Shown here: positions 2,062-62,516 of the stretch, piece after piece
Layout of the letters: each line of letters begins with the position of its first letter
Numbering within the stretch: position 1 is the first letter of the stretch
Assembly: GCA_039802605.1 (NCBI GenBank)
Contig: JBDRWW010000005.1
Span: 36,902-100,901 of the forward strand
From: a candidate division WOR-3 bacterium
Lineage (GTDB): Bacteria; Hydrothermota; Hydrothermia; LBFQ01
Length of the DNA stretch: 64,000 nt
Direction: 5' to 3'
The notes under the pieces: model-generated
Databases searched by the model: none
Told to the model about the DNA's origin: nothing
Seen by the model: only the letters and a program-made list of their open reading frames with translations
Position numbers and translations under genes: made by a program

Positions 2062-3021
2062 CCGTTATTTTTGCTTATTCGTGCAAGAAAAGAGGAGAAG
2101 GTGGAAGCGGGGGTGGGGAGGAACTCCCCTACCCCATCCTTGTGGAACAGGTCACAAATTATCAGTGTACCCCATGTAAGGGGGCAAACGAGGTTATAGA
2201 CTCCTTGGCGGATGCCCATCCCGACAAAATATTCCCAATACGCTACCATGTGAATACCCCTTACCCAGGTGATCCCCTCAACAACGAATACGCCGATAGT
2301 ATGGTTTCCTTCCACGGTTTGGATTTGAGTCGTGGTGTTCCTATAACCTTAATAGGAGGTGATTTTGTGGATTACGGATATGACGATAACCAGAGGGCGG
2401 ATTATGTTCAGAGGTGGTATAACAGAATAAAGGAAAAGTCCCAAACCCAACCTTACTATAATCCAACGGTTGAACTAATATACGGCGACGGCGCCATTGA
2501 TGTCAGTATTTCTCTTGATAAGCCGCTTCAAAGCGGTGATAATCCAAAGATATTCCTATCGGAATACAATGTTCCCCTACCACCCGGAAGCGAAAAACCC
2601 TATTCCAATTACGCCCTTCGCGGTATGATAAACGGTACAGGTGGAACATTTGTTGTAGATACCGCCTGGGATGTAAATAACCTTTATGTTATTTTTGCGA
2701 TCTTTAACCCCTCAAAACGGGTTGTTGGGTTAAGCAGGGTAAAGGTTTCGAACACATCAAACACCTTTACATTCTACGCTACCGACCCGGTTGTCGATAC
2801 GGTTGATTCGGGTGCAATATCTAAGTTTCATCTATATGCAAAAAACAATACAAATAAGGATCTGGTTATGACCTTAATGATTTCGGGAGTTCCGAGGTTT
2901 TGGAATACCGCCGTATGTTGGGGTATATGTATTTCGGGGAACAGGATAACGGATACCTTATAACACCTACAACCAAAGACTCGGCGAAAGGAGTGTAAAT
3001 TTCAAGGTATATGTCAGATGA
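2055..3021 (+). pseudogene. Omp28-related lipoprotein (thioredoxin fold, CTPC), 5' and internal deletions
   Basis: Frame of ORF 2142-2963 extends upstream as ILAVIFAYS-C (lipobox) to a TAA at 2052 with no start codon. CTPC and CWGIC motifs. The likely C-terminus YNQRLGERSVNFKVYVR* is out of frame and ends at 3021. Confidence 0.7.
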
Positions 3022-3431
3022 TTTGGATATTTATAGGATTTGTTGCAACCGATATATACGGCAACAAAGTGGATTTTGACGGCATAGTTAAAGAAAAGCA
3101 TGTGGTTTTAAACTTCTGGGCTACATGGTGCAATCACTGCGATGAGGAACTTGACAAACTAAACAAGCACTTTTCGGATAGAGACGATATCGTAATTATA
3201 GCGATTAGTCAGGATACAAAAAGGGACATAGAAAGGGTGAAGAGTATGGCCAAATCCCACGGTTGGAAAATGCCAATAGTGATAGACGACGGTAAAAGGA
3301 TATCATCACAATTTGCCGTATTAGGCCTACCCACGGTTATAATATTTGAAAAGGGTGGGAAATTGAAGAAAAAGGTTTTCGGATACAACCCCAAGATAGT
3401 TGAAATAATAAGGGAAACCCTCAAACTGTGA
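3018..3431 (+). CDS. TlpA/ResA-family thiol-disulfide oxidoreductase
   Basis: LNFWATWCNHC active site, GLPTV cis-Pro loop. Confidence 0.92.
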   Translation: MIWIFIGFVATDIYGNKVDFDGIVKEKHVVLNFWATWCNHCDEELDKLNKHFSDRDDIVIIAISQDTKRDIERVKSMAKSHGWKMPIVIDDGKRISSQFAVLGLPTVIIFEKGGKLKKKVFGYNPKIVEIIRETLKL

Positions 3432-4660
3432 TATTCTTTTCCATATACAATTCCTTATGGTTATCCGATAGTGTTCGCAATCTCGGTAAGATTCTATTTG
3501 ATTACAATTATGGTAGTTTTGGGTTATCATGCGAGATAAGGGATTATAGGACACCATCTCCTATATATGGCGATACCTATAAACTCAATTTGTTCAAACT
3601 TTCCGCAAAATATTTCGGAGGGGATTGGGAAATGCACTTGGGCGATAACAACATTACGGCTGGAAGGGGTTTATCGGTTTTTCTCTCATACGATGATAGG
3701 GCGCTTTTGGAGAGCTTCCTAAGGGGTGCATATTTCAGGTGGAGGTTTTTAAACCTGTACGGGGGATTAAAGAGAAAGTGGATATATTTTCAAGGGGATA
3801 GCGATACCACATATATAGGTGGCGTAAATTTTGATTTCAAAACCTTGGGAATAAATGGAATAAGGTATTTCATAAATTCAAAGGGGGGTTATTTGATCTC
3901 GGGAAACCTGAACGCATCCTTAGGATTATTGAAGGCCTATTTGGAAGGGGCTTATAGGTTTGGATACGACCCAACGGTCTTTGCGGAGGATACCGGTTAT
4001 GGAATTTTCGGCAATTTAACATTTTCTTATGGTGACCTTTCCCTATCCCTTGAAGGTAAAAATTACAAAAGGTTGTATGTGGGATTCAATATACCGGCAC
4101 CCGCAAACGGATACGGACTTTTGCCCACAAACGCCCGTTATGAAAGGGGAGGTTCGGTATACCTGTATTATAAAACCCTATACGCCGAATTTTCAAGGGG
4201 ACTTTCAACATTAAACGGCGAGAAGGTTATGGATTTTATAAAACTGCAATATTACACCAATGTTTTAAACGACTTTATAACCTTAAAGGTTTCCGCCCAT
4301 AGATTGTATTGGTTTCAAAATCTTGATGAATATTTGGCCTTTTGGGAAATCAAAACAAAAACGGAACCTTCCTTTATTGGATACTTAGAATATCGTAAAA
4401 GGAAAGGGGATGAACCCTTTGCATCTTTTTCTATACTCTATAAAGGTATAACCCTCGGAATATCCGGCAGATATTATAAATTCCAAAAGAAGAGGGATTA
4501 CCTTCTTGGAATCGCCTACGATAACTACCGCTTCTTAAGGTTATCCCTGAGTTATGGTAGTTTTTCGGGGGATATAGTTTGCTCTTCCGGTGTTTGCAGG
4601 TATGAGCCTCCCTTTAAGGGTTTTAAAGGGGAAATTCAAGTGTCTATAACCCATCCTTAG
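3428..4660 (+). CDS. DUF6029-like outer-membrane beta-barrel protein
   Basis: Alternating aromatic beta-strands; C-terminal GDIVCSSGVCRYEPPFKG signature; follows TlpA. Confidence 0.7.
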   Translation: MIFFSIYNSLWLSDSVRNLGKILFDYNYGSFGLSCEIRDYRTPSPIYGDTYKLNLFKLSAKYFGGDWEMHLGDNNITAGRGLSVFLSYDDRALLESFLRGAYFRWRFLNLYGGLKRKWIYFQGDSDTTYIGGVNFDFKTLGINGIRYFINSKGGYLISGNLNASLGLLKAYLEGAYRFGYDPTVFAEDTGYGIFGNLTFSYGDLSLSLEGKNYKRLYVGFNIPAPANGYGLLPTNARYERGGSVYLYYKTLYAEFSRGLSTLNGEKVMDFIKLQYYTNVLNDFITLKVSAHRLYWFQNLDEYLAFWEIKTKTEPSFIGYLEYRKRKGDEPFASFSILYKGITLGISGRYYKFQKKRDYLLGIAYDNYRFLRLSLSYGSFSGDIVCSSGVCRYEPPFKGFKGEIQVSITHP

Positions 4661-4681
4661 CATCCTTATAATACCCATTGT

Positions 4682-5626
4682 ATGAAAAAGGTTTTATTGG
4701 TTTTCGGTTTTGCCTCGCCGTTGTTTGCCCAGCCCTTCACATATCTGGGTATAATAGATGGGCAAATGGGTGCCTTCTCGGGTAATAGGAAGGATTCTAC
4801 ATATATAACGGGTTCGGGTTCTACCGTAAATACCGCCGTAAAAGCGGAAACACTATTCGTGGATCAGAGTTTCACATACATGGGCTACAACGCAAAGGGG
4901 ATACAGAGAAAGGCGTATTACAACGGAAGTCCCTCGCCAATATTTGAAGACACGGTTTACGAGGTTGGCGATACTATGCACAGGTTAATGGTTGTGGGCA
5001 GGTCAAGTAGTTCAACATATGTGAAGGCGGATGTTAAAGCGCTGGTAGTTCCCTTTGTCGTCGGAAATTCCTGGACATTGGGTATAGCGGGCAACACCTA
5101 TGTGGCGGACATTGACGGGGATAACAACTGGGCGAATCCCGACACATTCGTTATAACAAAGGATTCAATGTACGTTGTGTCTATGGGTACCGTTACGGTT
5201 CCGGCCGGAACATTTGACAGCGTATATACCATAAGGTTAAGGCTTGAAGGCAGGCTTTGGTCATCACTCGTATATTCCAACACCGGAAGTTCATCCGCCG
5301 CTTGGTCGGATTCCCTTTATAGGGATTATTACATTTGGTGGAAGCCCGGCCTTGGGTATGTTAAGGATTCAATGTTCCAGTTCGCCAAATGGAGATATCT
5401 CTTTGTTACAATACGTAACTTCTCCTGGGAAACTTCCGAGTTAAACGGTTATTGGGTAGATTTGGCCGAGAAGGGGAAATATCCCGAGTTATCGGGAAAG
5501 GGATACGCGGTTATATACGATATAACGGGTAAAAAGGTGGCGGAAGGTAAAGGTAAAATCTCTCTAAGGAAGGGTATATACTTTATTGTGCAAAAGGGGA
5601 GGGTGTATAAATACATTGTGAAGTGA
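4682..5626 (+). CDS. Secreted protein with short T9SS-type C-terminal domain
   Basis: Signal peptide MKKVLLVFGFASPLFA-Q; VTVPAGTF motif; C-terminal IYDITGKKV...LRKGIYFI...YKYIVK. Confidence 0.75.
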   Translation: MKKVLLVFGFASPLFAQPFTYLGIIDGQMGAFSGNRKDSTYITGSGSTVNTAVKAETLFVDQSFTYMGYNAKGIQRKAYYNGSPSPIFEDTVYEVGDTMHRLMVVGRSSSSTYVKADVKALVVPFVVGNSWTLGIAGNTYVADIDGDNNWANPDTFVITKDSMYVVSMGTVTVPAGTFDSVYTIRLRLEGRLWSSLVYSNTGSSSAAWSDSLYRDYYIWWKPGLGYVKDSMFQFAKWRYLFVTIRNFSWETSELNGYWVDLAEKGKYPELSGKGYAVIYDITGKKVAEGKGKISLRKGIYFIVQKGRVYKYIVK

Positions 5627-8389: not shown

Positions 8390-8839
8390 ATGCTAATGGT
8401 TTTTTTTACCCAGGTAAGGGTTGATATAGTGGATGTTATGGGAAACTTTTTAATACTCGGTAAAAGGGAAACCTCTTCGTATGTTATAATGACCATAGGT
8501 GAAAGCGAAGCATTTTCAATAAAAGTTGCCTTGGAAAACATTCCATTTGAGAGGCCGTTATCCCACGACCTTATGAAGAGCATAATAAACCTCTCCGGCT
8601 TTAAGCCCAAAAAGGTGGTTATATACGATGTAAAGAACGGGGCATATCTGGCAAAGATCTATATGGAAAAGGGGGTATTTATATTTAAACAGACCGTTGT
8701 CCTTGACAGTAGGCCTTCGGATGCGGTTGCCTTGGCCCTAAGGTTTAAAATCCCTATATATGTTATGCCCCACCTCTTCATAAACCCCTTAGAAATCAAA
8801 CCCGACACCTTACAAAAACCAAAGGGCATTGAGGGATGA
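8390..8839 (+). CDS. Bifunctional nuclease family (DUF151)
   Basis: IGESEA, RPLSHDL, LDSRPSDAVALALR. Confidence 0.9.
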   Translation: MLMVFFTQVRVDIVDVMGNFLILGKRETSSYVIMTIGESEAFSIKVALENIPFERPLSHDLMKSIINLSGFKPKKVVIYDVKNGAYLAKIYMEKGVFIFKQTVVLDSRPSDAVALALRFKIPIYVMPHLFINPLEIKPDTLQKPKGIEG

Positions 8840-15000: not shown

Positions 15001-15448
15001 GGGTTTGCAACGGATAAGAATTTATGTTTATGCCAAGTTTTTCTATCTCCGAAAATGGGATTTCGTATATTCCGCTTTTTGTTATTTTAACCTTTATCCA
15101 AACTTCGGATTTTGAAAAGGGGTTTTGGGGAGCGCTTTGGGGTCTAAATACCAGGTATTCCACCCATTCCTCTTTGGGATTTAAAACCGAGTTTAAAATT
15201 ATATGAGTCCTAAAATCCTTAATCTTTGAGGGTTTAACCTTTGGCTCGGGGAATACCACTTCAACCTTCCCATCCTTATAGGCCTTTATTTCAACATACC
15301 TAACCCCAAAGGAATAACCTTCTCTATGTTCGCACTTATTACAAATAACGGTGTAGGAAACCTTTGGCGGAATTTGAACTTTAAAGGTTTCATATGGCTT
15401 ACCTTTAAGGGAAACTTCAAATGAGAAGTTTGAAATAATCCATACCAT
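12035..15448 (-). CDS. porU: T9SS sortase PorU-like, peptidase C25 family
   Basis: WIKVKITKSGIY, NPYTDTTYYFL, DPVAIRNFL, VGDGTYDYKG, GIGRIP, catalytic HG (FFIHGNP) and Cys (LSCKVG), CTD YPNPY...SNGIYV. Confidence 0.85.
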   Translation of the reverse strand: MVWIISNFSFEVSLKGKPYETFKVQIPPKVSYTVICNKCEHREGYSFGVRYVEIKAYKDGKVEVVFPEPKVKPSKIKDFRTHIILNSVLNPKEEWVEYLVFRPQSAPQNPFSKSEVWIKVKITKSGIYEIPFSEIEKLGININSYPLQTLKMIALLDTLKSPLDSAFPQKYEVPIWIDEAGRRVLFWGESQKGFRIINGNVVYFENPYTDTTYYFLGIGGEVGGRMGIITASPGPYAQPVKFYRFEENINNPGKKGRVWVGREMTRNPSDPERVYTYGFALNDVLSGVEFRTRIANSEFSDSITSVVVRINGQICDSIGVLPRNYRTITCIPNLSENNNVDYVIKPSGGSQTLYLDYYQVSYISTGSYGNEGIFFINASGKFTVNLKGNRPVFVWDVSDPYNPKIIESYTYSSGNLFINDSANGWTKIYLSNFARRPISIELIDLSQDLYNISPDYVAIGNKGFSGTFWKLLNFRRNRIPVFNGRNWEYSVGTVLWINLEDIYTQFSLGNPDPVAIRNFLYNIFLRSGGNKPLYAVLVGDGTYDYKGFTQNYFPKQVPPYYPIDSSLSVNLDNFGAYDDFYGDFDGDYYSDIGIGRIPVRDNTELAEYINKVIEYESLINDGFWRYRIMLVADDEKSDSPSSCEIFHTYDVLYTVRPQLSPRINTIPFLLQNYPLEGYTKPKATRDLIRILNSGVLMVSFFIHGNPSQMAHERLFTLDDVPKLNTRGREPFITVLSCKVGAYDRLDPEHVLGEEMMLHKNRGIAVLSTTALAYAGNNALYARAIYSYLNTYGKTPLGYLSLVGKNDRYYVLLGDPGIMLKFPDSVGPLISDTLRRGAKNSAIIPEDGKFLVLDIPDIDTVSFTCLSVKYPYYSERTVMFYGDVKGDTIGFWIPFRGHISSDTSAWQKASLLWWKGDRGYAGLYPISYADSTIGTERPKVLGFYKDEGLRNGMNLPAKTTLRFQFISHEGFDIRTSGDNASPPRIIIDNSFTDVLEVKILNDTLAEASYDFDFSTSPGTHRIGVSITSAKGIRGYNIWDLNFVSDSLRVFDLLTYPNPYRGGNFYITFKLTKSADVRLRIYTPTGKVAIERYFMNLPPGFNSLNVPINSLSNGIYVALVEAKTREEKVKNFTRFVVIR

Positions 15449-24991: not shown

Positions 24992-26527
24992 CGTATTTAT
25001 TTTCCTTTCTTCTTTGGTTTTACCGTTTATAGCCTTTGATATTTCGGATAACTTAATCCTTTCGGCGGAAATCATCAAAATCCAAGGGGTATCCTTATAC
25101 TTGTAATTTAAAGATGTTCTCAGGGATGCGGGGTTTTTACCCCCTTCGTTTAGTATTCCTATGCCCATAGCGAGTTTTAAGGATTTATAGGTGTATAGCC
25201 CTTCAAACCTAAGCCTCTCATATCCCCCCAAAAATGCTATGAACCTTACAAAGGGTGCTCCCAAACCCATCCCAAAGGAAGAATTCTTTACGACATAAAG
25301 CGTTGTATTCCAAAACATTAAATCAACACCTAAGAATGCCTCCATCCTATCATCGGGGGTTAAGGTGTTATCACCGTAGAGGAAGTTGTCCGCGTAACCC
25401 CTCACAAAATATACACCAAATTCAACCGTTCTCTTCTTCTTATAAACGCTGCCAATATTTACAGGCTTGGGAGCTTCAACGCTTAAAGTTTCCCCTTTTC
25501 CTTTATCCTCTTCGGACTCTGTGGATTCTTCGTAGGTTTCTTCTTTTGCGGTGGTATCTTTCTCCTCGGGGTTCAAAAGTTTTTCAACGGTTTCCTTATT
25601 ATAGTTATCGTCAAACAGGGATGGTTTGAGTTTATAAGCGGTGTTGTATTCCCTTTGCGCTATCTTGTAAGCATTATACTTATAGGCCAAGAATCCGTAA
25701 AAGAAATGCCCTTCGGCGTAATTTGGGTCTATTTCTATGGCCTTTTGGGCGTGGGTTATAGCCTCGTTGTAATCTTCAAAGAAGAGGGCCTTTATCAAAC
25801 CCCTTCCCAGTTCCTCATAAGCCTCATACATATCCGTACCCGCATATTTTCCTTTGAAACCCCTGAGATCCACCTTCCTCAAAACCTTTTTGACAACATG
25901 CGTGGGTACGGCATAAGATATCGCTTCCCTGCCGCCTCCCTCTTTGGCAAACACAACTCCAATAACATCCCCATTCCTATCAATCAAAGGCCCCCCACTA
26001 TTTCCCGGATTTACACTCATGTTTAAGGCAATGGGATTTGCATTTTTATCGGAGGCCACAAACCCAAACATAACCTTTAATTCGTTGTCATGATAAGATG
26101 TTCCCGGATATCCCAGGGCGGCTACCGGTTCCCCCTGGTTCAAGGTTTCCCTTGAAGAAAGACTTATGGTTGGAAAATTCTCACCGGTAATCTTTAAGAC
26201 TGCGATATCGTTATCCGGGTCATCGTATATAACCTCCGCAAAGTATAACCTATCAACCAACTCTTTAAAGTTTGTAGCAGTAGGACCGTTTAACAAAACC
26301 GCTATTATCTTACCCGACCTTATAACATGACTATTGGTTATTATTGTACCGTTTTTATCAACAAAGAAACCAGAACCCGTTGATACATTCCAATCCGCGA
26401 CCACATCCCCAACGGATCTGAGTTTTGGCAAACCAAAGGATATTATCCTGATCACGGCATCCTTTTTGTCCTTAGTTAATAGCGCATCCCAATTGGGTAA
26501 AGTTATCTGTCCTAAAAGCATTAGCAT
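24953..26527 (-). CDS. S1C trypsin-like serine protease with TPR and putative C-terminal beta-barrel
   Basis: TNSHV / DIAVLK / GNSGG triad, TPR AIEIDPNYAEG, acidic linker, amphipathic strands ending LGLGLNLEI; ATG 26527 (alternative TTG 26533). Confidence 0.8.
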   Translation of the reverse strand: MLMLLGQITLPNWDALLTKDKKDAVIRIISFGLPKLRSVGDVVADWNVSTGSGFFVDKNGTIITNSHVIRSGKIIAVLLNGPTATNFKELVDRLYFAEVIYDDPDNDIAVLKITGENFPTISLSSRETLNQGEPVAALGYPGTSYHDNELKVMFGFVASDKNANPIALNMSVNPGNSGGPLIDRNGDVIGVVFAKEGGGREAISYAVPTHVVKKVLRKVDLRGFKGKYAGTDMYEAYEELGRGLIKALFFEDYNEAITHAQKAIEIDPNYAEGHFFYGFLAYKYNAYKIAQREYNTAYKLKPSLFDDNYNKETVEKLLNPEEKDTTAKEETYEESTESEEDKGKGETLSVEAPKPVNIGSVYKKKRTVEFGVYFVRGYADNFLYGDNTLTPDDRMEAFLGVDLMFWNTTLYVVKNSSFGMGLGAPFVRFIAFLGGYERLRFEGLYTYKSLKLAMGIGILNEGGKNPASLRTSLNYKYKDTPWILMISAERIKLSEISKAINGKTKEERKINTLFGLGLGLNLEI

Positions 26528-27161: not shown

Positions 27162-28790
27162 TTAATCAAATTTTCCCGGAGAGTAAAGGCTCTTGTAAAT
27201 CCAATAGCCCTTCAAAACCCTCCTGACATAAGCACGGGTTTCGTTGTAGGGTATAATATCAATGAATAGGTCGTAATCAAGTCTTTCATACTCGTAATCG
27301 CAAAGCCATCCGTTCAGCGCTCCCATACCGGCGTTATAAGACGCCAAGGCCAAAGCGTAATCGGGGAAAACCCTTAAATATTCCGAAAAAACCCAGGCTC
27401 CAATTAAAAGGTTTGTCTTCGGGTCGTATGGATCTTTAATCCCCTTTTTGAACTTCCTTGAAAATTTTTTAACCTTGTCGGGCATAATTTGGGATAAACC
27501 CAAAGCACCGGCTGGGGATTGGGCTCTAACCATAAACCTACTTTCTTCCCTTATTAATGCTACAAATAAAAGGGGATCTATACCAAAGGTAGTTGAAGCC
27601 GAATCGATGTAATGGGAAAAGAACTTCTTGTTATAGGGGTAAGCGAGCTTTCCCCACCACAAGGGAATCCCCTCACTTTTATCGGAAATGTCATATATGT
27701 ACTGCAATACAAGGGAAGCCCTATAAAAATCCCCACTTTTCAGCAAATCCTTTAAATGCTTGTAAGCCGAGGGGATGTTTTTCAGGTAAAAATCCCTTGC
27801 GTATTGATAACCTGCGATTTTTTCAACAATTTTACCCATCTCGTAAAATCTGGTATCCCCCAATGTATCCCATAAGGCACCTTTCGACCATTTTGGCTTT
27901 ATTCCCAGTTTTAAGGAATAGTAATTTAAAGGATCCTCACTTTTTATTATGCGAACATAATAGGTGTCCCGTGTAATTTTGTATAGCCAAAAAGCCGCCC
28001 GAATCCTGTTAAAATCGCCATAACCGCCTTTACGAAAGGCCATATAAAGGTAGTTATAAGCATCCTCTATGTATCCCAAAATGTAAGCGGAAATACCCAG
28101 CCATACCAAACCATCCGATTCGGTGTTTTCATCAGCATAGGATTTTAATAGAGAAAATAGCCTGTAACCCAAATGTTTCATATCGGGTTTGGCCACTTCC
28201 GAGGCCATAAGTCTGAATGCCCTTTCTTCGTCCCCTATATCCGCCAAAACCTTTAAATAAACCTCTATTGAATCGTAAATTTCATCGGTTAGGGCTTTTA
28301 TCAAAGGTTTCACTATATATCCTCTCAAATACCATTTGGGGAGTTTAAGCATTTCGTCAAGGGTTAGGTCTGTAAATTTGCTCTTTGCTACAAGATAAAG
28401 GGAATACTCGTTTTCCTTTGTGGTATCGGCATACTTAAATACGCTATCGTAAAGTTTGTGGTCGAGGAATACGCGCAATTTGTTATAGTTGTCCAAAAGG
28501 GGTATTGCCTTCAAAGAAAACGGGTAATATGGGTATAACTTTGCGAGTTTAATTAGGGAAGATGTATCGGCGAATAATTCGTATTTGGCTTTTAAAACCT
28601 CGGGTATTTCGGGGCAAAGGGTGTAGTCGGTTTTAACACCTTTAAGGGCAATAAATTTACAAGACAATGTGCAAGGAGGGGTTGGATTATTGCAAACCTC
28701 CTTTAATAAACCGTACTCCCCCGCCTTTATCCTATCATAAAGTAAAAACCCCTCAATTTCGGGATATGAGGATATAAGAAATAAGCTCAT
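27162..28790 (-). CDS. Soluble lytic transglycosylase (Slt domain)
   Basis: IREESRF, GALGLSQIMP, ASYNAG, IPYNETRAYV. Confidence 0.9.
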   Translation of the reverse strand: MSLFLISSYPEIEGFLLYDRIKAGEYGLLKEVCNNPTPPCTLSCKFIALKGVKTDYTLCPEIPEVLKAKYELFADTSSLIKLAKLYPYYPFSLKAIPLLDNYNKLRVFLDHKLYDSVFKYADTTKENEYSLYLVAKSKFTDLTLDEMLKLPKWYLRGYIVKPLIKALTDEIYDSIEVYLKVLADIGDEERAFRLMASEVAKPDMKHLGYRLFSLLKSYADENTESDGLVWLGISAYILGYIEDAYNYLYMAFRKGGYGDFNRIRAAFWLYKITRDTYYVRIIKSEDPLNYYSLKLGIKPKWSKGALWDTLGDTRFYEMGKIVEKIAGYQYARDFYLKNIPSAYKHLKDLLKSGDFYRASLVLQYIYDISDKSEGIPLWWGKLAYPYNKKFFSHYIDSASTTFGIDPLLFVALIREESRFMVRAQSPAGALGLSQIMPDKVKKFSRKFKKGIKDPYDPKTNLLIGAWVFSEYLRVFPDYALALASYNAGMGALNGWLCDYEYERLDYDLFIDIIPYNETRAYVRRVLKGYWIYKSLYSPGKFD

Positions 28791-29374
28791 TTTTCAGAAG
28801 GCTTGTGTATAGCCTCTATTTGCAATTCAACCTTTACGGTTTTATCAACCACCAAACCCCCGGTTTCAAGTACCTTATTCCAGTTTAATCCGAAGTCAAA
28901 CCTGTTGATTTCAAAAGATGCCTCAACCCCTATCCTTAGATTGCCCCAAGGATCTTTAATTGGACCATTTATCGTGTAGGGAAAAGATACGGTTTTGGTA
29001 GTTCCCTTTATGGTTAAATCCGCATCCGCCCACCAAGTATTACCCTTTTTATAAACCTTTTTTACCACCATCCTCATTTCCGGATATTTTTCGGCATCAA
29101 AGAAATCGGGACTCCTCAAATGCTCATCCCTCCTTTCATTTCTCGTATCTATGCTTTGAACATAAACCACGCCTTCGGCCTTCGTGTTTTTTGGATTATC
29201 CGGGTCGTACTCTATCCAACCGTCAAACTTTTCAAATGTGCCCACGACCGTCGTCACCATCATGTGTTTTACCTTGAATGTAATGGATGTATGCGCTGGA
29301 TCCACCACAAACTTCAAAGGCTTTGCATATACCAATGCCGGCGCAAGGGCTAATAATATCGCCATCCTTTTCAT
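28787..29374 (-). CDS. YceI family periplasmic protein
   Basis: Signal peptide; VDPAHT, F.VKHM, RDEHLRSPDFF, INRFDFG. Confidence 0.93.
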   Translation of the reverse strand: MKRMAILLALAPALVYAKPLKFVVDPAHTSITFKVKHMMVTTVVGTFEKFDGWIEYDPDNPKNTKAEGVVYVQSIDTRNERRDEHLRSPDFFDAEKYPEMRMVVKKVYKKGNTWWADADLTIKGTTKTVSFPYTINGPIKDPWGNLRIGVEASFEINRFDFGLNWNKVLETGGLVVDKTVKVELQIEAIHKPSEK

Positions 29375-31197: not shown

Positions 31198-31609
31198 AAA
31201 TCATGGGTGCTGGTAAAACGGAGAATTTGCCCTCCTGGGCGAGTAGATATATGGGCAGATTTATACCCCCTTTTAAAAACTTCAACCTATATCCACCCCT
31301 TAAAAATATCGCCGTATAACTCTGATCGTATATGTTTAACCTCGGTATCCCCGCAGTTGTACCGGAAAACCCAAAAGCCAATTCCCATTTGCCGATGTTC
31401 CCACCAAAACCCAAGGAAGAGTTGAGGAGGACAATGTTTTCTTCTCCAATACTATACCTTATACCACCGACTTCAAAAATCCCAAAGGTTGCTTCTCCAA
31501 AGGGGGCATTAACGCCGAAGGCGGGATAACCGAAAAAAATGGGTAATTCTTTATTTACCAAGCCCGGAAATGTGGCAAAGAGATTAATATTAAAAGCCAA
31601 ACTTAGCAT
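31172..31609 (-). CDS. Hypothetical protein, beta-strand rich (small outer-membrane barrel?)
   Basis: ATG 31609 overlaps the upstream gene end; Gly/aromatic alternating strands. Confidence 0.55.
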   Translation of the reverse strand: MLSLAFNINLFATFPGLVNKELPIFFGYPAFGVNAPFGEATFGIFEVGGIRYSIGEENIVLLNSSLGFGGNIGKWELAFGFSGTTAGIPRLNIYDQSYTAIFLRGGYRLKFLKGGINLPIYLLAQEGKFSVLPAPMIYVSLSTQR

Positions 31610-32654
31610 ATTCAAACTCCATTCCCAAGTAAAAAGACCTATGCGAGTTGTTGTAAGCAAATGTAAAGCTCCTGCGGAATAGGTTAAGGGATATTCCCCC
31701 AAATAAGGCTTTATCCACCGGATACAGGTATCCTATAAATACCTCGGGTCTAAACCTCTTTGCGAATCTATACCTAATAACGGGCTCAAAACCCAATAAT
31801 TGCCCTCCCCCGCTTAGAAACCACCTAAAACCTATACCCATCTCCCCACCTTCAAAAAATCCCGTATATCCCAACCTGTTTTCAAATATCAGGCCATTTT
31901 TCAAGTTTTCCGAGTTAAAGACATAACCCAAAAAAGAATAAAAGTCCAAATTATACCTACCCCTGACAAAAACCTTACCCACTTCACCCTCCACCCTCAC
32001 GGGGATTATGGTGGTTGATAGGAAGGATATCTGCCTAAACCTTATGTTGTATCCGTTAAAGGTTTTGTAAAACCCCGACCAAAGGGGAACACCGGAATTG
32101 TTATAAACAAATCCCGAAAAGTACCCGTATCCATCACCCCTTGAAACAAACTCCAAACCTCCACTTGAAAGGTATATCCACTCTTCATAAAAGTCCAAAA
32201 CCATAGTGTCATAAGGATACCTACCTATGTACGCGCTCCTACGGAAAGTTGTAAAGAAACCGCTAATTGTGAATTCCTTCAAAAGCGAAGAATAGGATGA
32301 AAAGGAGATCTTCCCAAAGGATACATCATAATCACCAACCTTGTCCGTGTAACTTCCCCAAAAACTTCCTTCAAATTGAAGGTAAGATTTTCCAATTTTG
32401 CCTCCCACACTCATAAATACCGGTTTTGCATAAAATGGCCTTGTAAGATAAGCGCTATCGCTTAAATATTCGGAATTCTGTGAGGATACCGAATAGGGGT
32501 ATGTATATGCAAAAACATATTCCCTTAGAATTGATGATGAACCCAAGGAACTGTGATAGTTGGCTATGTCTTCAAGCGTTTTATAAGAATTTGGCAAAGA
32601 AAAGGTTAAACCTCCGGATAAAATTGCGTGTAATAAGGGCAGAGTATCTATCAA
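31590..32654 (-). CDS. Hypothetical outer-membrane beta-barrel-like protein
   Basis: 354 aa rich in Y/F/G strands; TTG start 1 nt after tRNA-Met. Confidence 0.6.
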   Translation of the reverse strand: MIDTLPLLHAILSGGLTFSLPNSYKTLEDIANYHSSLGSSSILREYVFAYTYPYSVSSQNSEYLSDSAYLTRPFYAKPVFMSVGGKIGKSYLQFEGSFWGSYTDKVGDYDVSFGKISFSSYSSLLKEFTISGFFTTFRRSAYIGRYPYDTMVLDFYEEWIYLSSGGLEFVSRGDGYGYFSGFVYNNSGVPLWSGFYKTFNGYNIRFRQISFLSTTIIPVRVEGEVGKVFVRGRYNLDFYSFLGYVFNSENLKNGLIFENRLGYTGFFEGGEMGIGFRWFLSGGGQLLGFEPVIRYRFAKRFRPEVFIGYLYPVDKALFGGISLNLFRRSFTFAYNNSHRSFYLGMEFEYAKFGF

Positions 32655-32730: not shown

Positions 32731-32800
32731 TAGAAGTGGATATTTTATACCCGAACGATTGGTTTGTGTGAAAATAAAACGGAGGTATAATTCCCGCTCT

Positions 32801-34366
32801 ATGTCAAGCAAAAACCTTATAAGGTTGATTATTATCCTCTTGGTATTTGTTGGGGGCTTATGGTTGTTGTATCCCACTTATAGGGTTTTAACCATGTCCC
32901 AAGAGGAAAAGGAAAAGATGAACCCCTACGAATTCCAAAAGTTGATGAAGAATTCCCTAAACCTCGGTTTGGATATACAAGGGGGTATGTATATAGTCCT
33001 TTCCATTGACAAATCCAAGCTAAAACCCGAACAGGCGGTGGATGCCGCGGATAGGGTTGTTGAGGTTATAAGGAACAGGGTTGACCAGTTGGGGGTATTT
33101 GAGCCGGTTATCCAAAAGGTCGGTGATGATAGGATAATAGTGCAATTGCCGGGTGTTGTTAGTAAGGAGAGGGCGAGGATGATTATAGGAAAAACCGCCC
33201 TTTTGGAGTTTAAGCTTCTGGCGGATGAAAGGTTATTTGTTGATTTTATTAGGGATGTTGATAGGACTTTGAAAGGGGAAAAAACAGATGGCATTTTTAA
33301 CAGAGAAGATACGACAAAATTGAGCGGGCCGTTTTCAAAACTGCTGGTAGGATTGGAAGGAGATGTAGCGGTTGCGGAAGAAAATTGGGCCAAAGTGGAT
33401 AGCATTTTGAATTTACCCGAGGTAAAGAAACTTGTACCCCCCGGTTATGAAATCCTTTGGGGGGCAACAAAGGAGATTAACGGAAAGAAGTTTAGACATC
33501 TCTTTATGGTAAAGGCCGAAACTCCCCTTACGGGTGCCTATTTGGTGGATGCAAATGCCACAATTGGACAGCAACAGGCGGCGGGGCAGCCCGTGGTTCA
33601 ACTGAGATTTGATAGGACGGGAGCCGCCATATTCGCGAGGATAACCGGTGAAAATGTTGGCAAAAGACTTGCAATAGTTTTGGACGGTATAGTGCAATCA
33701 GCCCCAAGAATTCAAGAAAAAATTCCCACGGGTAATGCCCAGATAACGGGTATTCCGACGCTTCAAGAGGCCAGGGATTTGGCGGCCATTTTAAGGGGCG
33801 GCGCATTGCCCGTACCCGTTAAAATAGAGGAGGAAAGGGTAGTTGGACCCACCTTAGGAAAAGATTCAATAGAAAGGGGTATGAGGGCACTGGCATTGGC
33901 TTTTATAGCCGTAGTGCTGTTTATGATACTATATTACAGGTTTGGCGGAATTATAGCAAACCTCGCCCTTTTGGCAAACTTGGTCCTTATTTTGGACTTT
34001 ATGGCCATGCTAAACGCAACGCTGACTATGCCCGGAATGGCGGGGCTTATTCTAACGGTTGGTATGGCGGTTGATTCAAATGTCCTCATATTTGAGAGAA
34101 TAAGGGAGGAACTGAGAAAGGGGAATCCTTTTAGAACCGCCCTTGAAAGCGGTTATTCAAACGCAACCCGTACCATCTTGGACGCAAATATAACAACGCT
34201 TTTAACATCCTTGGTCCTGATGTTCTTGGGTACGGGTCCAATTCGGGGTTTTGCCGTAGTTTTGAGCATAGGTATCGTAATAAACCTATTCACGGCTATT
34301 GTAATGACGCGTTGGATATTTGAGATTTTGTTGGAAGAGTTAAAGTGGAAAGAAGTGGCGGTATAA
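32801..34366 (+). CDS. secD: Protein translocase subunit SecD
   Basis: LGLDIQGG, RIIVQLPG, GMAVDSNVLIFERIREE, ILDANITT; likely ATG 32801. Confidence 0.97.
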   Translation: MSSKNLIRLIIILLVFVGGLWLLYPTYRVLTMSQEEKEKMNPYEFQKLMKNSLNLGLDIQGGMYIVLSIDKSKLKPEQAVDAADRVVEVIRNRVDQLGVFEPVIQKVGDDRIIVQLPGVVSKERARMIIGKTALLEFKLLADERLFVDFIRDVDRTLKGEKTDGIFNREDTTKLSGPFSKLLVGLEGDVAVAEENWAKVDSILNLPEVKKLVPPGYEILWGATKEINGKKFRHLFMVKAETPLTGAYLVDANATIGQQQAAGQPVVQLRFDRTGAAIFARITGENVGKRLAIVLDGIVQSAPRIQEKIPTGNAQITGIPTLQEARDLAAILRGGALPVPVKIEEERVVGPTLGKDSIERGMRALALAFIAVVLFMILYYRFGGIIANLALLANLVLILDFMAMLNATLTMPGMAGLILTVGMAVDSNVLIFERIREELRKGNPFRTALESGYSNATRTILDANITTLLTSLVLMFLGTGPIRGFAVVLSIGIVINLFTAIVMTRWIFEILLEELKWKEVAV

Positions 34367-34376
34367 GGAGGGAAAA

Positions 34377-35288
34377 ATGTTTAAGTTCCTTTACAATTTA
34401 AACTTTGATTTTATGGGCAATCGAAGGATAGCATATTTGATTTCCGGAACCCTTGTAGCGCTTGGATTGGTGGGGATACTTTTGAGGCTTACACCTCTGG
34501 CGGGATTGGTGGGCTTGAAACAAACATGGTCAATAGATTTCACGGGCGGTAGGTTGGTACAGGTATATGTTGAGGCTCCAATTGAAAGGGTTAGGGGTGC
34601 AATTCTCGGTGCCGGGATAAATGCGGAAATCCAAAACATAGGAGAGGCCAACAAATTCCTGATAAAATATTCCGGGAATGTTGAAGCGGATAGTGTTGTT
34701 AAAATATTGGAGAACAAACTCGGCAAAAAGGTTAGGCTTGATAGGTCGGATATAGTGGGTCCCCGTATAGGATCCGAATTGAGGGAAAGGGCTATACTCC
34801 TCAGCATTTTGGGTTTAATATTGATACTCATATACATATGGTTTAGGTTTGACTTGGTTTTCGGTTTGGCGGCCACCTTAGCATTGTTCCACGATGCGAT
34901 AATCTCTTGGGGTATATACTCCCTGCTCGGTTTTGAAACGGACATGACCGTAATAGCGGCGGTTCTAACCCTTATAGGTTATTCAATAAACGACTCCATA
35001 GTTATAGCGGATAGGGTGAGGGAATACTTGGGAAGGTTTAAGCTGATGGAGTTTTCGGCAGAGGAACTCATAAAAATCTTTAACAGTGCTATAAATTCCA
35101 CGCTTTCAAGAACCGTTATAACCGCATTTACCGCACTAATAGTTGTGTTGGCCATTCTGTTCTTTGGGGGACCCGTTCTATTCAATTTTGCCTTTGTTAT
35201 GACCGTAGGGATAATTGTGGGTACATATTCATCAATATTTATTGTTGCGGCTTTGGTATTGGATTGGAGGCTTAGAAGGGAGAAATAA
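34377..35288 (+). CDS. secF: Protein translocase subunit SecF
   Basis: IDFTGG, VGPRIGSEL, GYSINDSIVIADRVRE, GTYSSIF. Confidence 0.97.
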   Translation: MFKFLYNLNFDFMGNRRIAYLISGTLVALGLVGILLRLTPLAGLVGLKQTWSIDFTGGRLVQVYVEAPIERVRGAILGAGINAEIQNIGEANKFLIKYSGNVEADSVVKILENKLGKKVRLDRSDIVGPRIGSELRERAILLSILGLILILIYIWFRFDLVFGLAATLALFHDAIISWGIYSLLGFETDMTVIAAVLTLIGYSINDSIVIADRVREYLGRFKLMEFSAEELIKIFNSAINSTLSRTVITAFTALIVVLAILFFGGPVLFNFAFVMTVGIIVGTYSSIFIVAALVLDWRLRREK

Positions 35289-53100: not shown

Positions 53101-53598
53101 GATGCAGTAATATTTATAAACGATGACCCCAACTCCTTTGAAAAGAAGCTCTCCGAAAACCTGGTATTATATGTTGAAGGTTTTGTTAGGACTTTGGAGG
53201 TTGAAGACGAAAACGGCGAGGAGGAGGTTAGCATAGAGATAAGGATAGATACCATAAACGATGTTAAAACCGTTGACGAAATGCTTACACAGTTTTTGGA
53301 AAAAATAGACTTAAACCGGGCTTGGAAGGGCTATGTTATGAACATGAACGGATACACGGATGAAATGGATATAAAGAGGGAGTTTGTAAGGTTTTGGATA
53401 AAGGAAATTGCGGGCGAGGAGTTCTCCACATCAGAAATACCGTATATGGAGGGCTTAAGGGTTATAAAAACGTTGAAAACATACGGCTCTAAAATTCTTG
53501 AAAATTCGGAGAACGACCCGATAAAAATGGGTGCGAAGGCCTTATTGTTAAAGGATATAGGTTTATGGCAGGATTTCCTTAGGAGGGTTAAGGGATGA
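50119..53598 (+). CDS. dnaE: DNA polymerase III alpha subunit
   Basis: FVHLHVHSEYSLLDG, GRGSAAGS, PDVDIDF, KIDILGL, FNKSHS; likely ATG 50119. Confidence 0.98.
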   Translation: MADFVHLHVHSEYSLLDGAARIDDLIKKAKELGFEALALTDHGNLFGAIEFYVKALEEGIKPILGMEAYIVDDLNDRSKRDYNHLTLLAMDERGWKNLIKLSSIGWTKGFYSKPRIDKKSLEEYSEGIIVLSGCPKGEIAQYILNDNYKKAYELIDWFKEVFKDRFFLEVQDVGIPENQKINTFLLEASKKTGLKLVATNDVHYINREDRHLQDILMCIAQGTKLTDEKRFRLSTEEIYMRTEEEMLNLFKDIPEAVKNTKLVAEMIDLKIEIDPQKLKLPLPPNVKEPFEDLKVKAYEGLRRKLNGNIPKEYEERLEYELEVIRNTGFAGYFLIIEDIINYCKNNGIMVGIGRGSAAGSLVLYALDITDVDPIKYGLLFERFLNPERVSPPDVDIDFEDRRRDEVIDYIRKTYGENSTAQIITFSKLKPRAALKDTARVYGIEFDEANRITKLVPNIPSDPITLKEAYETVEDFKKAVSNGKWKEIVENAIKIENFTRGVSVHAAGVVITPGEITDYVPLAVVKDRVVTQFDKNTLELLGILKIDILGLRTLSALSMAEKMIREIYDPNFSLKDIPLDDKKTFELLQQGKTMGVFQLESPAMRKLLMRLRPNHINDIIALNALYRPGPIQSGMVDEYIERKHGKPYDYEFEGLKPILEETYGLIVYQEQVMKAAQILAGFTPGEADTLRKAIGKKKKDLMDAMREKFINGAVERGYPKEKIEELWEKIEKFASYSFNKSHSVAYAITSFWTAYIKAHYPLVFYASTLSSFRTSGQQKFFDNAPLFISEMKESGIKIEPPDVNKSDVEFIIDKEQNKIIWGLGFIKSVGDSAAETIVNERRTRGPYKSLEEFSKRTKLNKRTLEGLAKAGAFRSITNLPKTKIIEYINFGKKITKGTSKDIFGIGKKLEGESGKEDFKTNLMMERESIGVYISENPFERYIKLRNSLGLPKISDLENYEDKRVGILGSLMYFSKKKFKNGTRFSLRLEDDTGYVDAVIFINDDPNSFEKKLSENLVLYVEGFVRTLEVEDENGEEEVSIEIRIDTINDVKTVDEMLTQFLEKIDLNRAWKGYVMNMNGYTDEMDIKREFVRFWIKEIAGEEFSTSEIPYMEGLRVIKTLKTYGSKILENSENDPIKMGAKALLLKDIGLWQDFLRRVKG

Positions 53599-54611
53599 TA
53601 TTCCCCTTATGCTCGCCGTATCATCCGTTGTTCGGTTATCAAAACTGCGAAACATACTCCCTAACTTACTTTTACGATATACCGAGATTTACATACGAGA
53701 GGACGATAACATTTGAAAGCTTTTCAAGCTCAACGTTTACGGACATTTACACCTACAAAACCGTTTACGATACCTTTGATTATCAAACCGTGGGCTTTAA
53801 ATTCCATTCCCCCAATGTCGTAGGTGGGGCTTACACGGAAAGGATAAACATAAAGGAAAACTATGCCTTCGGTTTTGTGGGGAGGTATAGGTGGTTTTCG
53901 GGTTTAATTTTGAAAGGGAAGAGAAACCCTTATGAGGAAAAGGCGTATTTTGTGAATTTTGATTACGGGAAGTTTTCCTTAGGCGGCGGGTGGGATAGGG
54001 GTTATAGTTTTGGGGGAAGTTTTGGGGATAAAATATTATTAAAGGGTTTGTATTATTCGTCTTATGATACCGTTTTTGGGGGAGGCTTGGGTTACAGGGG
54101 GGATAACTTTACGCTTTCGCTTTTGGGTGGCTACGGGTTTTTGACGGATTTCCTCTTATTCATCTCGGATTTTCAAGTATCGGGGGGATATAATCTAACT
54201 AAAAGGTTAAAAAATGGGTTTATAACATTGAAGTACGGGGATTTTACGGGTCTATCGCTCGTTTACGGTAAAAGGCCTTGGGGTGAAAATGAGTATATTG
54301 ATAATCCTGAGGTTCAGGGCTTTATAAGTTTTAAAAACCCTTGGTTTTCCACATATCTCAAAGGTGTGTATTTAACCCAAAGGCTTGTGTATAGGATTGC
54401 CGGGGGTATTCAACTGAACTTTTTAAAGTTAAAAGAAATAGCGGAATTAAAACCGGTATTGGATACATATTATGAGGATAACGGAAACCTTTGGGTTAAT
54501 GCGGGGGTAGAGGTGATATTTTACAAGGATTTGCGCATAGGAGCCTTTTACGATTATTGGAAAGGGGGGCAAACCATAGGGGTAAAAGTCCTTTGGAGGT
54601 TGTGGGATTGA
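53595..54611 (+). CDS. Hypothetical outer-membrane beta-barrel-like protein
   Basis: Y/F/G-rich alternating strands ending GVKVLWRLWD. Confidence 0.6.
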   Translation: MIFPLCSPYHPLFGYQNCETYSLTYFYDIPRFTYERTITFESFSSSTFTDIYTYKTVYDTFDYQTVGFKFHSPNVVGGAYTERINIKENYAFGFVGRYRWFSGLILKGKRNPYEEKAYFVNFDYGKFSLGGGWDRGYSFGGSFGDKILLKGLYYSSYDTVFGGGLGYRGDNFTLSLLGGYGFLTDFLLFISDFQVSGGYNLTKRLKNGFITLKYGDFTGLSLVYGKRPWGENEYIDNPEVQGFISFKNPWFSTYLKGVYLTQRLVYRIAGGIQLNFLKLKEIAELKPVLDTYYEDNGNLWVNAGVEVIFYKDLRIGAFYDYWKGGQTIGVKVLWRLWD

Positions 54612-61300: not shown

Positions 61301-61422
61301 TAGGTTCGGGTGTTATGAAGAGGTTGGCCGCTCCCATGATAGGTGGGGTATTTTTCGCGTTAATATTGGTTTTGGTCGTGTATCCGGCGATATATAGGGT
61401 AATCTACGGGAGGGGCAAATGA
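58342..61422 (+). CDS. cusA: CusA/CzcA heavy-metal RND permease
   Basis: LDAIPNISDTQVI, GPDATALGWV, MVDAGIVMVEN, RIRVDMLSTG, RLRPKVMT. Confidence 0.95.
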   Translation: MKMDKLIRWVLNNPFLTLTITAFFVILGFIAVYKTPLDAIPNISDTQVIIEAKWEGQDPTTMEDQVTYPIASAMLSAPKTKAVRGFSMPNKSLIYVIFEDGTDIYWARSRVLEYLSGISLPDEVSLRLGPDATALGWVFMYALIDTSGKNDISFLRTFNDFYLRYRILSADGVSDVASVGGYLKEYQVDIDPYKLRAYGLTLKDVLNAVKGSNMQGGGRVIEVSERYYMIRGLGYIKSPEDLEKAVIKTDPETGASIKLGDVAIVQLGPALQEGAADLDGKGEVVGGIVIMRDGENALRVINNVKRVLSETPLPEGVKIVITYDRSELIKEAVSTLFNTLIKESIAVLIVVAIFLFTLRGSLPIVVFLPLALIIPYIFIYAMRITTNIMSLGGMALSIGVMVDAGIVMVENTFKHFEKNPPKTFGERLEIVYKAICEVAPSIIFSLAIVTISFLPIFALTGEEGRLFKPLAFTKTLTMAVATVLSITLMPVLILLIIPNRVRDETQNPVNVILHKLYEPIFNSTMKYPYVFIGTWVVMSVMAFFILKRIPNEFMPPLEEGSLLYMPSSVAGVPLDKGVEILRKQDSILKTFPEVERVFGKIGRADNPTDPAPLSMIETTILLKPEKEWRRGMTLEKLIGEMNEKLQFPGWVNTWGMPIRIRVDMLSTGIRTPVGIKVLGNDPYKVESLAVEVERIISGLKETQTAFADRSAKMLYVDIIPKREKLAEYGLSVSDLTDIIGKVIGGMPIGYAVEGRERYPIRVRLARDFRDEVEDIRDLEFITPTGAVVSLGSVADVNISRAPSEIKSDNGFIASYVYVVPKGDIGMDSYVEMAKKILKEKLKLPPGYFLVFSGQYENLKRAQQTMVIILPITLIIIFILLYMNFRSFFKSILVILSVPFTLFGAFGLMYILGYKMSIASWVGVVALLGLTAELGVVMIMFMDLGLKEHPYDPLKGIYEGALRRLRPKVMTATTTFISLIPIMFETEVGSGVMKRLAAPMIGGVFFALILVLVVYPAIYRVIYGRGK

Positions 61423-62516
61423 TTTTAATCCTCGCTTTAACACTTGATGATTATTTAAAGGGTGTTAAAAACCATCCGCAGATAAAGGGGTACGAAAGCG
61501 GTGTTAGGGTTTATTCCGGAAGGGTTATAACGGATCTTTTGCCACCAAATCCTACGCTAACATATAACGCCATGTTTATGCCCGGCGCAATATCCTTAGA
61601 CCAACCAATACCCCTTTCATGGCCTATAAAAACCCTTTCAAGCTTGGAAAACAAAAGGGCTATGGAATACCAATACTTAGAACTCAAAAACGAGTTCCTT
61701 TTTATGGCTATAAACTCATACCTTGATGCCTTGTATTTACATGAGAAAATAAGGGTTTTGGAGGAAATTTTGAAGAACCTACAAAGCGTTTATAAGAGCG
61801 TATCCGCCCTTTACAAGGTTGGGAAAATCCCGGAAAGTGAGTTAAAGAGGATAGAGGCAAAGATGAATGTAATTCGCGCCGATATAGAGGGGGCAAGGGG
61901 TGAATTACTTGGTAAAATGAAACTTGTGGAATACTTTTATGGAAAATCCGTTGATAGTTTGGAATTCCCACCCGTTGATACCCTACCCAACCTTGAAAGT
62001 TTGTTAAAGGATGTTGAGAAATCCCCTTACATCAAATCCCAATATCATGCAAAGCGCTCTTCAAATTACAACAGGCTTTCATCAATCCTATCTTTGGTCC
62101 CGGTTTTATCACCGGGAATCCTTTACAACAACGGTACGATGTCCTTTTCTATATCCTTTGAAATCCCCCTTTGGCTTCCCAAATATTTTGGGGATTTAAA
62201 GGGCTCCCAAAGCGAATACAAAATGCAAGAGTACATTTACCAAAGCGTTAAATTAAGGGTGAATTCGGAGGTTTATTCGGAATATGAGGCCTATGTCTCG
62301 TCTTTGGGCAGATTAAAATCCCTTGAAATGTCTTTAAAAGAACTTGAAAAGGCTTATTCTTCCGAACTCTCAAAGTATAAAACAACGGGCGCCGGTACGA
62401 CGGATTACCTGTTTATTCAAAACGATATACTTGAAACCGAACTGGCGATAATAAAGGAAAAACTTGAAGTTATAAGGAGGATATATAGGGTTAAATCGCT
62501 TCTTGGAACTATTTAA
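61419..62516 (+). CDS. TolC-family outer-membrane factor (CusC-like)
   Basis: LTLDD..., LPPNP, helical repeats, YKVG; last gene of the cus operon. Confidence 0.8.
   Translation: MILILALTLDDYLKGVKNHPQIKGYESGVRVYSGRVITDLLPPNPTLTYNAMFMPGAISLDQPIPLSWPIKTLSSLENKRAMEYQYLELKNEFLFMAINSYLDALYLHEKIRVLEEILKNLQSVYKSVSALYKVGKIPESELKRIEAKMNVIRADIEGARGELLGKMKLVEYFYGKSVDSLEFPPVDTLPNLESLLKDVEKSPYIKSQYHAKRSSNYNRLSSILSLVPVLSPGILYNNGTMSFSISFEIPLWLPKYFGDLKGSQSEYKMQEYIYQSVKLRVNSEVYSEYEAYVSSLGRLKSLEMSLKELEKAYSSELSKYKTTGAGTTDYLFIQNDILETELAIIKEKLEVIRRIYRVKSLLGTI

Follow-up and report, generated by a model that had tools for sequence, protein, structure and literature searches.

Short N-termini in the window

The window analysed here is a stretch of 64,000 nucleotides (nt) from the genome of a candidate division WOR-3 bacterium (C5:36902-100901; genome of 1.65 Mb in 23 contigs, 41% GC, rated 90% complete), in which several genes for proteins of the cell envelope begin with very short hydrophobic N-termini that carry no charge. 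A first-pass annotation had listed nine such N-termini as candidates for a second, minimal class of export signals, here called predicted mini signals, and all nine were found at the positions it gave. They are listed below together with an additional start of the same type, which was not on that list, two canonical signals for comparison and the Sec accessory genes of the window.

61419..61436, forward strand: MILILA (then LTLDD), predicted mini signal of the TolC-family OEP gene 61419-62516; stop 21 nt upstream, Shine-Dalgarno (SD) sequence GGGAGG
15431..15448, reverse strand: MVWIIS, predicted mini signal of the PorU-like gene 12035-15448 (Peptidase_C25 and type IX secretion system (T9SS) C-terminal domain); ATG right after the TAA of the upstream gene (stop 0 nt upstream)
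28770..28790, reverse strand: MSLFLIS, predicted mini signal of the SLT lytic transglycosylase gene 27162-28790; stop 3 nt upstream
3018..3038, forward strand: MIWIFIG, predicted mini signal of the TlpA/Redoxin-type gene 3018-3431 (WCxxC motif); stop 54 nt upstream
3428..3445, forward strand: (GTG) IFFSI, predicted mini signal of gene 3428-4660 (DUF6029, C-terminal end only); stop 24 nt upstream, start overlapping the stop of the upstream gene
26510..26527, reverse strand: MLMLLG then Q, predicted mini signal of the Trypsin_2+TPR protease gene 24953-26527; stop 6 nt before a TTG, ATG 6 nt further, TATAAT 11 nt before the ATG
53595..53609, forward strand: MIFPL, followed by a conserved Cys, N-terminus of gene 53595-54611 (family restricted to f1, see below); stop 3 nt upstream, SD GGAGG
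31592..31609, reverse strand: MLSLAF..., uncharged start of the small gene 31172-31609; frame open upstream, but conserved TGGAGG-N7-9-ATG
32616..32654, reverse strand: (TTG) IDTLPLLHAILS, uncharged 13-residue start of gene 31590-32654; directly abuts tRNA-Met 32655-32729
8390..8410, forward strand: MLMVFFT then Q, additional mini-type start, gene 8390-8839 (BFN domain); TAAAAT -10 box upstream
4682..4729, forward strand: canonical comparator signal MKKVLLVFGFASPLFA then Q, gene 4682-5626
29324..29374, reverse strand: canonical comparator signal MKRMAILLALAPALVYA, YceI gene 28787-29374
32759..35288, forward strand: secD 32759-34366 and secF 34377-35288 (Pfam SecD/SecF domains)

As the first-pass annotation had it, the starts are constrained, the nearest in-frame stop codon lying 0-54 nt upstream in seven of the nine cases and a tRNA or an SD sequence fixing the other two. 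None of the nine can be extended to a normal signal, and no signal-like peptide was found in any frame upstream of the starts. The assignment to envelope families was borne out by Pfam matches to OEP, Peptidase_C25 with Por_Secre_tail, SLT, AhpC-TSA/Redoxin, DUF6029 (C-terminal end only) and Trypsin_2 with TPR; the three genes annotated as 'barrels' (53595, 31609, 32654) gave no Pfam match. These three also depart from the proposed length of ~6 hydrophobic residues, which does not hold for all nine: 31609 and 32654 have uncharged, yet longer hydrophobic starts (13-16 amino acids, aa), and the start at 53595 is not a typical mini signal, having a conserved N-terminus with Cys at position 6-7. 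Canonical signals at 4682, 29374 and 44395, as well as lipoproteins with MKR-type starts, are present in the same window, again in agreement with the annotation. Part of the window is contained in a 'hot springs metagenome' RNA library, the contigs of which cover the protease gene 24953-26527. Contig-only RNA runs were uninformative on 5' ends, and no read from two raw-read runs (~3% of each sampled), searched for transcript starts, matched the window.

Conservation of the short starts in relatives

The genome containing the window (G000) belongs to family f1. G013 represents family f2 of the same order and G019 (f3) and G020 (f4) represent the same class, which also takes in f5 and f6, whereas G021 (f7), G064 (f22), G058 (f12) and G049 (f9) belong to other classes. 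Orthologues were compared for six of the nine proteins (TolC, PorU, SLT, 53595, 31609 and 32654), and their starts were uncharged across f1, and in f2 where an orthologue was present; four of the six keep very short starts and two (31609, 32654) keep 13-16 residues.

The TolC orthologues of f1 and f2 align from residue 1-3 and have open frames of 356-412 aa, with the starts MIVILA, MILLLG, MITLIC, MILFLA, MLLSILLA, MIFLIFG, VIFLILS and MIIIVS. Wherever the start was read, the residue at the predicted -1 position is A, G, S or C, and the rest of the peptide is variable. Public gene calls contain the same 365-aa TolC-like protein; a homologue search with it retrieved only seven close relatives, all of 365-390 aa, and a sequence search of the PDB returned no match. 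PorU orthologues from 12 f1 and five f2 loci are all short and uncharged at the N-terminus, most of them behind a TAGAAT located 6-7 nt upstream, and SLT orthologues follow the same short-start pattern in 11 f1 and three f2 loci. Further away, the class-level TolC orthologue of G019 reads MKNLIFLTIFNLTLFS, and the PorU of G020 has MKFLILANLLLTQ in place of the starts of 6-8 residues seen in f1 and f2; uncharged signals of G020 are 9-15 aa long and often begin with MN. The orthologues thus span a gradient between normal signals and mini signals, which argues that the latter are trimmed Sec signals.

Among the longer starts, that of 31609 is preceded by a TGGAGG SD sequence and ATG conserved in 10 f1 loci, and the g2 orthologues begin with MEFLLFSLG. 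The orthologues of 53595 follow the patterns MIFP[LI]CSP and V[LF]FLP[FI]C[NE]P. In the family of gene 53595-54611 (loci L245-L253) the N-termini read MIFPLCSPYHP or VLFLPFCNPVHP, with a second conserved Cys ~13 residues on; the Cys residues could form a disulfide pair or belong to an atypical, very short lipoprotein leader.

Genome-wide pattern of predicted mini signals

The gene set of G000 consists of 1666 genes predicted with a simple home-made gene caller; an alternative genetic code was considered and is unneeded, the standard code yielding a coding density of 96.7% and long open reading frames (ORFs). Seventy of the 1666 genes begin with Met followed by at least five hydrophobic residues (ILVFMWAC), compared to ~18 expected from the frequency of such runs after 7787 internal Met residues (1.1%). 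In an E. coli control of 200 kb, only 2/166 genes begin in this way and neither encodes an exported protein. For a description of the signals themselves we used the genes with hydrophobic runs of 4-8 residues after Met (n=118, 114 of them outside the window). Their consensus is M-[ILVM]-[W/L]-h-h-h-[S/G/A], followed by Q, S or D, with a sharp length peak at 7. Trp occupies position 3 in 37/118 (background 1.3%) and Gln position 8 in 18/118 (background 1.8%), while the residue right after the hydrophobic run is S in 44, G in 22, Q in 12 and T in 12 cases, R or K being found there in only three. A detector requiring a hydrophobic core, then A, S or G, then Q matched 47 times in G000, and the lengths were bimodal: 13 matches at length 7, flanked by three at 6 and five at 8, were set apart from a wide group of longer ones at 13-23. 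When applied to 6455 internal Met sites, the same detector gave two matches at length 7.

Mini signals resemble classical Sec/signal peptidase I (SPase I, type I) signals in being N-terminal hydrophobic stretches, with a small residue at the end, on exported protein families; they coexist with normal signals and are orthologous to normal ones in relatives. They differ in the lack of a basic n-region, no K or R being present before or within the hydrophobic run, in a core dominated by runs of 4-6 rather than ~7-15 residues, and in a total length of ~7 compared to ~18-30; position 3 is often Trp, and the predicted -1 residue is mostly S, G or A but the -3 residue is usually bulky (mostly L, I, V or F). 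They have no Arg and are not Tat (twin-arginine translocation) signals, nor are they type IV pilin (class III) signals, since the run of only 4-6 residues is followed by polar mature domains. A signal peptidase II lipobox with Cys at +1 is lacking as well; lipoprotein-type starts (~50) retain K/R (MKR-type) and have the Cys at 13-32, and only two are short and uncharged.

It is conceivable that such an N-terminus opens the Sec channel without being cut and, too short to serve as an anchor, slips through and remains part of the mature protein. A helix of seven residues is indeed too short to span the bilayer, and both the bulky -3 residue and conservation that goes beyond hydrophobicity (MIFPLCSPYHP with its Cys pair, MVW in PorU) would fit an uncleaved peptide. 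However, the run ends in a small residue right after which Q is enriched at a fixed distance from Met, the -1 residue of the TolC orthologues is kept as A/G/S/C while other positions vary, and the canonical signals of G000 likewise end in A followed by Q. We therefore consider retention of the peptide unlikely.

The proteins concerned belong mostly to exported families, a TonB-dependent receptor among them, and include all three Omp85/BamA proteins, which begin with MLLGILVLQ (776 aa, BamA-like), MITLLVS and MVLFLLS (followed by Q). Por_Secre_tail matches above the Pfam cut-off numbered 11, of which 10 map to genes; of these T9SS C-terminal-domain proteins, seven have uncharged and short N-termini, two have canonical ones and one is ambiguous. 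From the 114 mini proteins encoded elsewhere in the genome, 40 were drawn at random and compared with Pfam, and 23 had a match. Fourteen of the 23 are exported types (S8, Amidase_2, NosD, SCO1, cytochrome c-FTR1, FG-GAP with the T9SS C-terminal domain, PQQ_2, DUF7948/SBBP, Sortilin-like, DUF3108, Plug, GSDH, PD40 with OmpA, and Tll0287-like). Four are ambiguous (two TPR, two rhodanese), three are membrane proteins and two are cytoplasmic enzymes.

Wrong starts, assembly errors or decaying genes might also produce short N-termini. Broken genes do occur in the window, such as a P-type ATPase spread over three frames (54816-56649), and a crude rule that looks for an SD sequence or for a TA[ATG]AAT -10 box at -17 to -12 finds one of the two in 68 of the 118 mini genes (21 with SD, 47 with a box) and nothing in the other 50. 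Nevertheless, in-frame stops lie directly upstream of the starts, the same starts recur with full-length frames in up to 20 independently assembled genomes, the E. coli control is nearly devoid of them and the carriers include a BamA-like Omp85 protein, whose family E. coli and the other diderms studied cannot do without. An artefact of this kind is very improbable.

Signal recognition particle and the rest of the export machinery

The first-pass annotation had proposed an altered specificity of SecA, the signal recognition particle (SRP) or the signal peptidase, or an undescribed targeting route, and had suggested a look at SecA, SecY, Ffh and LepB for lineage-specific changes or paralogs. 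The idea of changed targeting machinery was borne out for SRP, in a manner that had not been foreseen: its components were not found. The M domain of Ffh (PF02978) had no match at E<=1 in any of 21 relatives, and matched in 14 of 14 control genomes. Strong matches to PF00448, in the form of Ffh-sized and FtsY-sized pairs, were obtained in 43 of the 61 sampled genomes of the phylum, yet in none of the 11 genomes of the class (G000, f3, six of f4, two of f5, and f6), four of which are rated 100% and two more 99% complete. A strong match is also missing from seven genomes of families f7, f19, f20 and f22 (G021, G038, G041, G053, G064, G073 and G078). Searching G000 with the Ffh and FtsY of G058 (tblastn) gave nothing better than E 0.05. 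The lone weak SRP54-domain match in G000, judged by eye, reads as RadA (zinc finger, Walker A, KNRFG motif). Small SRP RNA (RF00169) is present in G058 and G049, and the model matches all 13 control genomes; neither it nor the large form (RF01854) was found in G000, G013, G019 and G020. All three components occur in other classes of the phylum. From these searches, the SRP pathway (Ffh, FtsY and SRP RNA) appears to be gone from the class.

Class-specific changes were found in SecY as well, next to the sites of prlA mutations. SecY of G000 was aligned to that of E. coli, and 49 sequences were compared (26 from the class and 23 others). At the equivalent of E. coli S405, in transmembrane helix 10 (TM10), all 26 sequences of the class have Arg, whereas the others have S (17), T (3) or A (3); E. 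coli has S and Aquifex T. The site lies two residues before the prlA site L407 and, as far as we know, is not itself among the reported prlA alleles. Among the pore-ring residues, for which we assume the E. coli numbering, f1, f2 and f3 have Ala or Ser at the equivalent of I187, where f4, f5 and 20 of the 23 sequences from outside the class have Ile. Changes of the prlA4 type were not seen, the equivalents of I278, F286 and I408 being unchanged.

SecA, SecY, LepB and YidC are each encoded in single copy, without paralogs. SecA and LepB, residues of which were not compared across groups, showed no obvious peculiarity; LepB, in most genomes a single gene, has 43-57% identity across the phylum. 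A basic C-terminal tail of the YidC2/Oxa1 type was considered as a replacement for SRP, but the YidC tails are short with and without SRP alike.

Distribution of uncharged starts across the phylum

Starts of relatives were counted in samples of 170-400 kb with the pipeline used for G000. For each genome we give the status of SRP, the number of genes beginning with Met and at least five hydrophobic residues, and the uncharged fraction of signal-like N-termini.

G000 (f1, own genome): SRP not found; 70/1666; 177/444
G013 (f2, same order): SRP not found; 8/183; 21/56
G019 (f3, same class): SRP not found; 9/369; 35/116
G020 (f4, same class): SRP not found; 7/363; 47/113
G021 (f7, other class): SRP not found; 11/177; 20/52
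G064 (f22, other class): SRP not found; 3/172; 17/37
G058 (f12, other class): SRP found; 5/367; 15/117
G049 (f9, other class): SRP found; 4/294; 14/90

Uncharged sequences make up 30-46% of the signal-like N-termini in the six genomes without SRP versus 13-16% in the two with SRP; since the detector is a loose one, only the contrast between the rows is meaningful.

Interpretation

Taken together, the short starts are best taken as the true N-termini, and probably function as minimised Sec/SPase I signals in an SRP-less clade. The signal would have shed its basic n-region and shrunk to formylmethionine, 4-6 strongly hydrophobic residues, with Trp often third, and a single small residue. Two steps may be envisaged. 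Positive charge would have been lost first, throughout the class and in some SRP-lacking families elsewhere in the phylum, after which the hydrophobic core would have been cut to ~5 residues in the order containing G000. As the SRP pathway has apparently been lost, targeting would have to proceed via the single SecA and SecYEG. The Arg in TM10 of SecY and, in the families with the shortest signals, the small pore-ring residue may lower the gating threshold in the way prlA alleles do. Cleavage by the single LepB would probably take place behind the small residue at position 6-8, so that Q, S or D becomes the +1 residue. Of the second signal class postulated in the first-pass annotation, a distinct group of N-termini stands beside the canonical signals, bimodal in length, conserved and borne by exported families; its export, cleavage and route are conjectural, as is a causal tie to the loss of SRP.

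Several points weigh against this interpretation. Export and cleavage are predicted from sequence, and the gene caller and signal heuristics are both home-made and not SignalP. G000 is only 90% complete, and the genome searches pass a loose first filter. The association between SRP and signal type may go back to only one or two events in evolution. Specificity of the motif is incomplete, given the two cytoplasmic enzymes and three polytopic membrane proteins among the 23 Pfam-matched carriers, and the residue at -3 is usually bulky where a small one is the rule. Some orthologues have next to no hydrophobic start, such as PorU with MVWF followed by DVVL (G001, G004) and SLT with MFIY followed by AEVQ (G003) or MLLA followed by LYPEI (G004), and a signal role for starts of the MVWF, MFIY and MLLA type is hard to picture. 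As for SecY, Aquifex likewise has Ala at the I187 equivalent, the remaining five positions of the pore ring show no change, nor does F286, and the TM10 Arg is missing from the SRP-lacking G021, G041 and G053, all outside the class, of which G021 still has uncharged signals.

One might instead suppose that an undescribed factor or route has replaced SRP and reads M-h-W-h-h-h directly, independently of classical SecA recognition. Such a factor would account for the position-specific motif (Trp at 3, fixed length of 7) in a genome where SRP components were not found and where SecA, LepB and YidC show no obvious oddity. Yet no candidate for it was identified, Trp is absent from many mini members and from f2 and f4, and the graded series of orthologues favours gradual trimming of Sec signals; we regard this alternative as quite improbable. 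A more far-reaching reading is that a free-living, diderm, thermophilic clade has discarded SRP, FtsY and SRP RNA altogether, and that uncharged peptides of ~7 residues target most of its non-lipoprotein exported proteome, BamA included, recognition following a non-textbook rule through either a constitutively 'unlocked' SecY (TM10 Arg, small pore ring), for which a few hydrophobic residues suffice, or an unknown factor reading an M-h-W-h-h-h tag. This we put forward tentatively, as a possibility that falls somewhat short of an even chance.

Comparison with known systems and significance

In E. coli the length of the hydrophobic core has a lower limit, and a missing positive charge has to be offset by a longer core. 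Here proteins such as BamA combine minimal charge with a minimal core length. Dev, Ray and Novak are said to have reported in 1990 that the best minimal peptide substrate of E. coli SPase I spans -7 to +2, which would fit a prepeptide of seven residues.

The prlA alleles L407R and I408N, located in TM10, permit export of proteins with defective signals, according to the parts of PMC11494458 and PMC4826270 consulted. The class resembles them in a polar or charged TM10 change beside L407/I408, a smaller pore-ring residue and signals that would be defective by E. coli standards; it differs in that the SecY changes are natural and fixed class-wide. Streptococcus mutans survives experimental loss of the SRP pathway by using YidC2 (PMC8546722, in part). 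Life without Ffh and FtsY is common to both, but the loss described here is natural and clade-wide, it occurs in diderms, and the single YidC has no long basic C-terminal tail.

The Q-rule of Bacteroidetes does not hold for the whole Fibrobacteres-Chlorobi-Bacteroidetes (FCB) group or related phyla, as stated in the consulted part of PMC5837995. Gln is frequent after the predicted cleavage site of both mini and canonical signals of G000, similar to that rule; the difference is that glutaminyl cyclase of type I (PF05096) was not found in G000, only M28-family peptidases (C7:8765-9364 and C2:120401-120670). The enrichment of Gln right after canonical and mini signals alike amounts to Q 48 at position 8 versus ~27 elsewhere, and can be seen in the window at 4730 and 26509.

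We found no published description of either the mini signals or the absence of SRP in the class. A term search of papers on WOR-3 and Caldipriscus (PMC11696919, PMC12285271, PMC12542636 and PMC4791363, in the portions consulted, supplements not covered) found no mention of signal peptides. The literature searched for short or minimal signal peptides yielded only pilin-type and unrelated cases, and that for SRP in WOR-3, or for natural loss of ffh or SRP, yielded nothing relevant. SRP and signal peptides are, to our knowledge, regarded as textbook universals. If correct, the present interpretation would redefine the minimum information needed for opening the Sec channel and offer a natural system for targeting without SRP; signal predictors, and completeness estimates that count ffh and ftsY, would systematically misjudge the clade. 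A cultured WOR-3 isolate is described in the consulted part of PMC12285271 and, should it belong to the SRP-less class, the question would be directly testable.

Start codons, promoters and other features of the window

In about a quarter of the genes (422 of 1655), a TA[ATG]AAT hexamer begins 15 to 12 nt ahead of the start codon, with the consensus AAAtttTTCa.CCTTAtAATACCCgcTT-ATG. Because these boxes sit so near the start codons, leaderless or near-leaderless mRNAs would be common in G000. The spacer is conserved (TATAAT-ACCCGCTT-ATG) and an A/T-rich block lies directly upstream, with no clear -35 box (e.g. 4662-4681, 8370-8389 and 39383-39402).

Two ORFs, both with TTG, begin on the first base after a tRNA: that at 32654 after tRNA-Met 32655-32729 and that at 9796 after tRNA-Leu 9709-9795. 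In nine of 10 f1 loci the start codon of the 32654 orthologue is located 0-3 nt past tRNA-Met, the tenth being masked, which suggests that tRNA processing could release a leaderless mRNA of such genes.

An RNA-library contig from a related strain (run X1) has an 18-nt insertion at 28780, at the SLT start, which recreates a -10 box and a leaderless GTG start as in the G002 orthologue. N-termini in this lineage evolve by insertions and deletions that shift the promoter relative to the coding region. The SLT orthologue of G019 (L114) and the TolC orthologue of G013 (L039) have a stop-bounded frame without ATG, GTG or TTG before the hydrophobic stretch, which hints at non-canonical start codons in some relatives.

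The P-type ATPase mentioned above is either a pseudogene or an assembly error; its E1-E2_ATPase part occupies 54816-55727 and its hydrolase part 56041-56649, while an ORF in the third frame covers 55667-55960. ORFs at 9796-10278, 17514-17933 and 10765-11367 match fragments of Pfam families, namely Orn_Arg_deC_N (positions 2-46 of 247), the RsmF PUA domain alone and Glycos_transf_2 from model position 27. Finally, two NuoA (Oxidored_q4) paralogues, 16411-16782 and 22217-22630, lie 5.4 kb apart.

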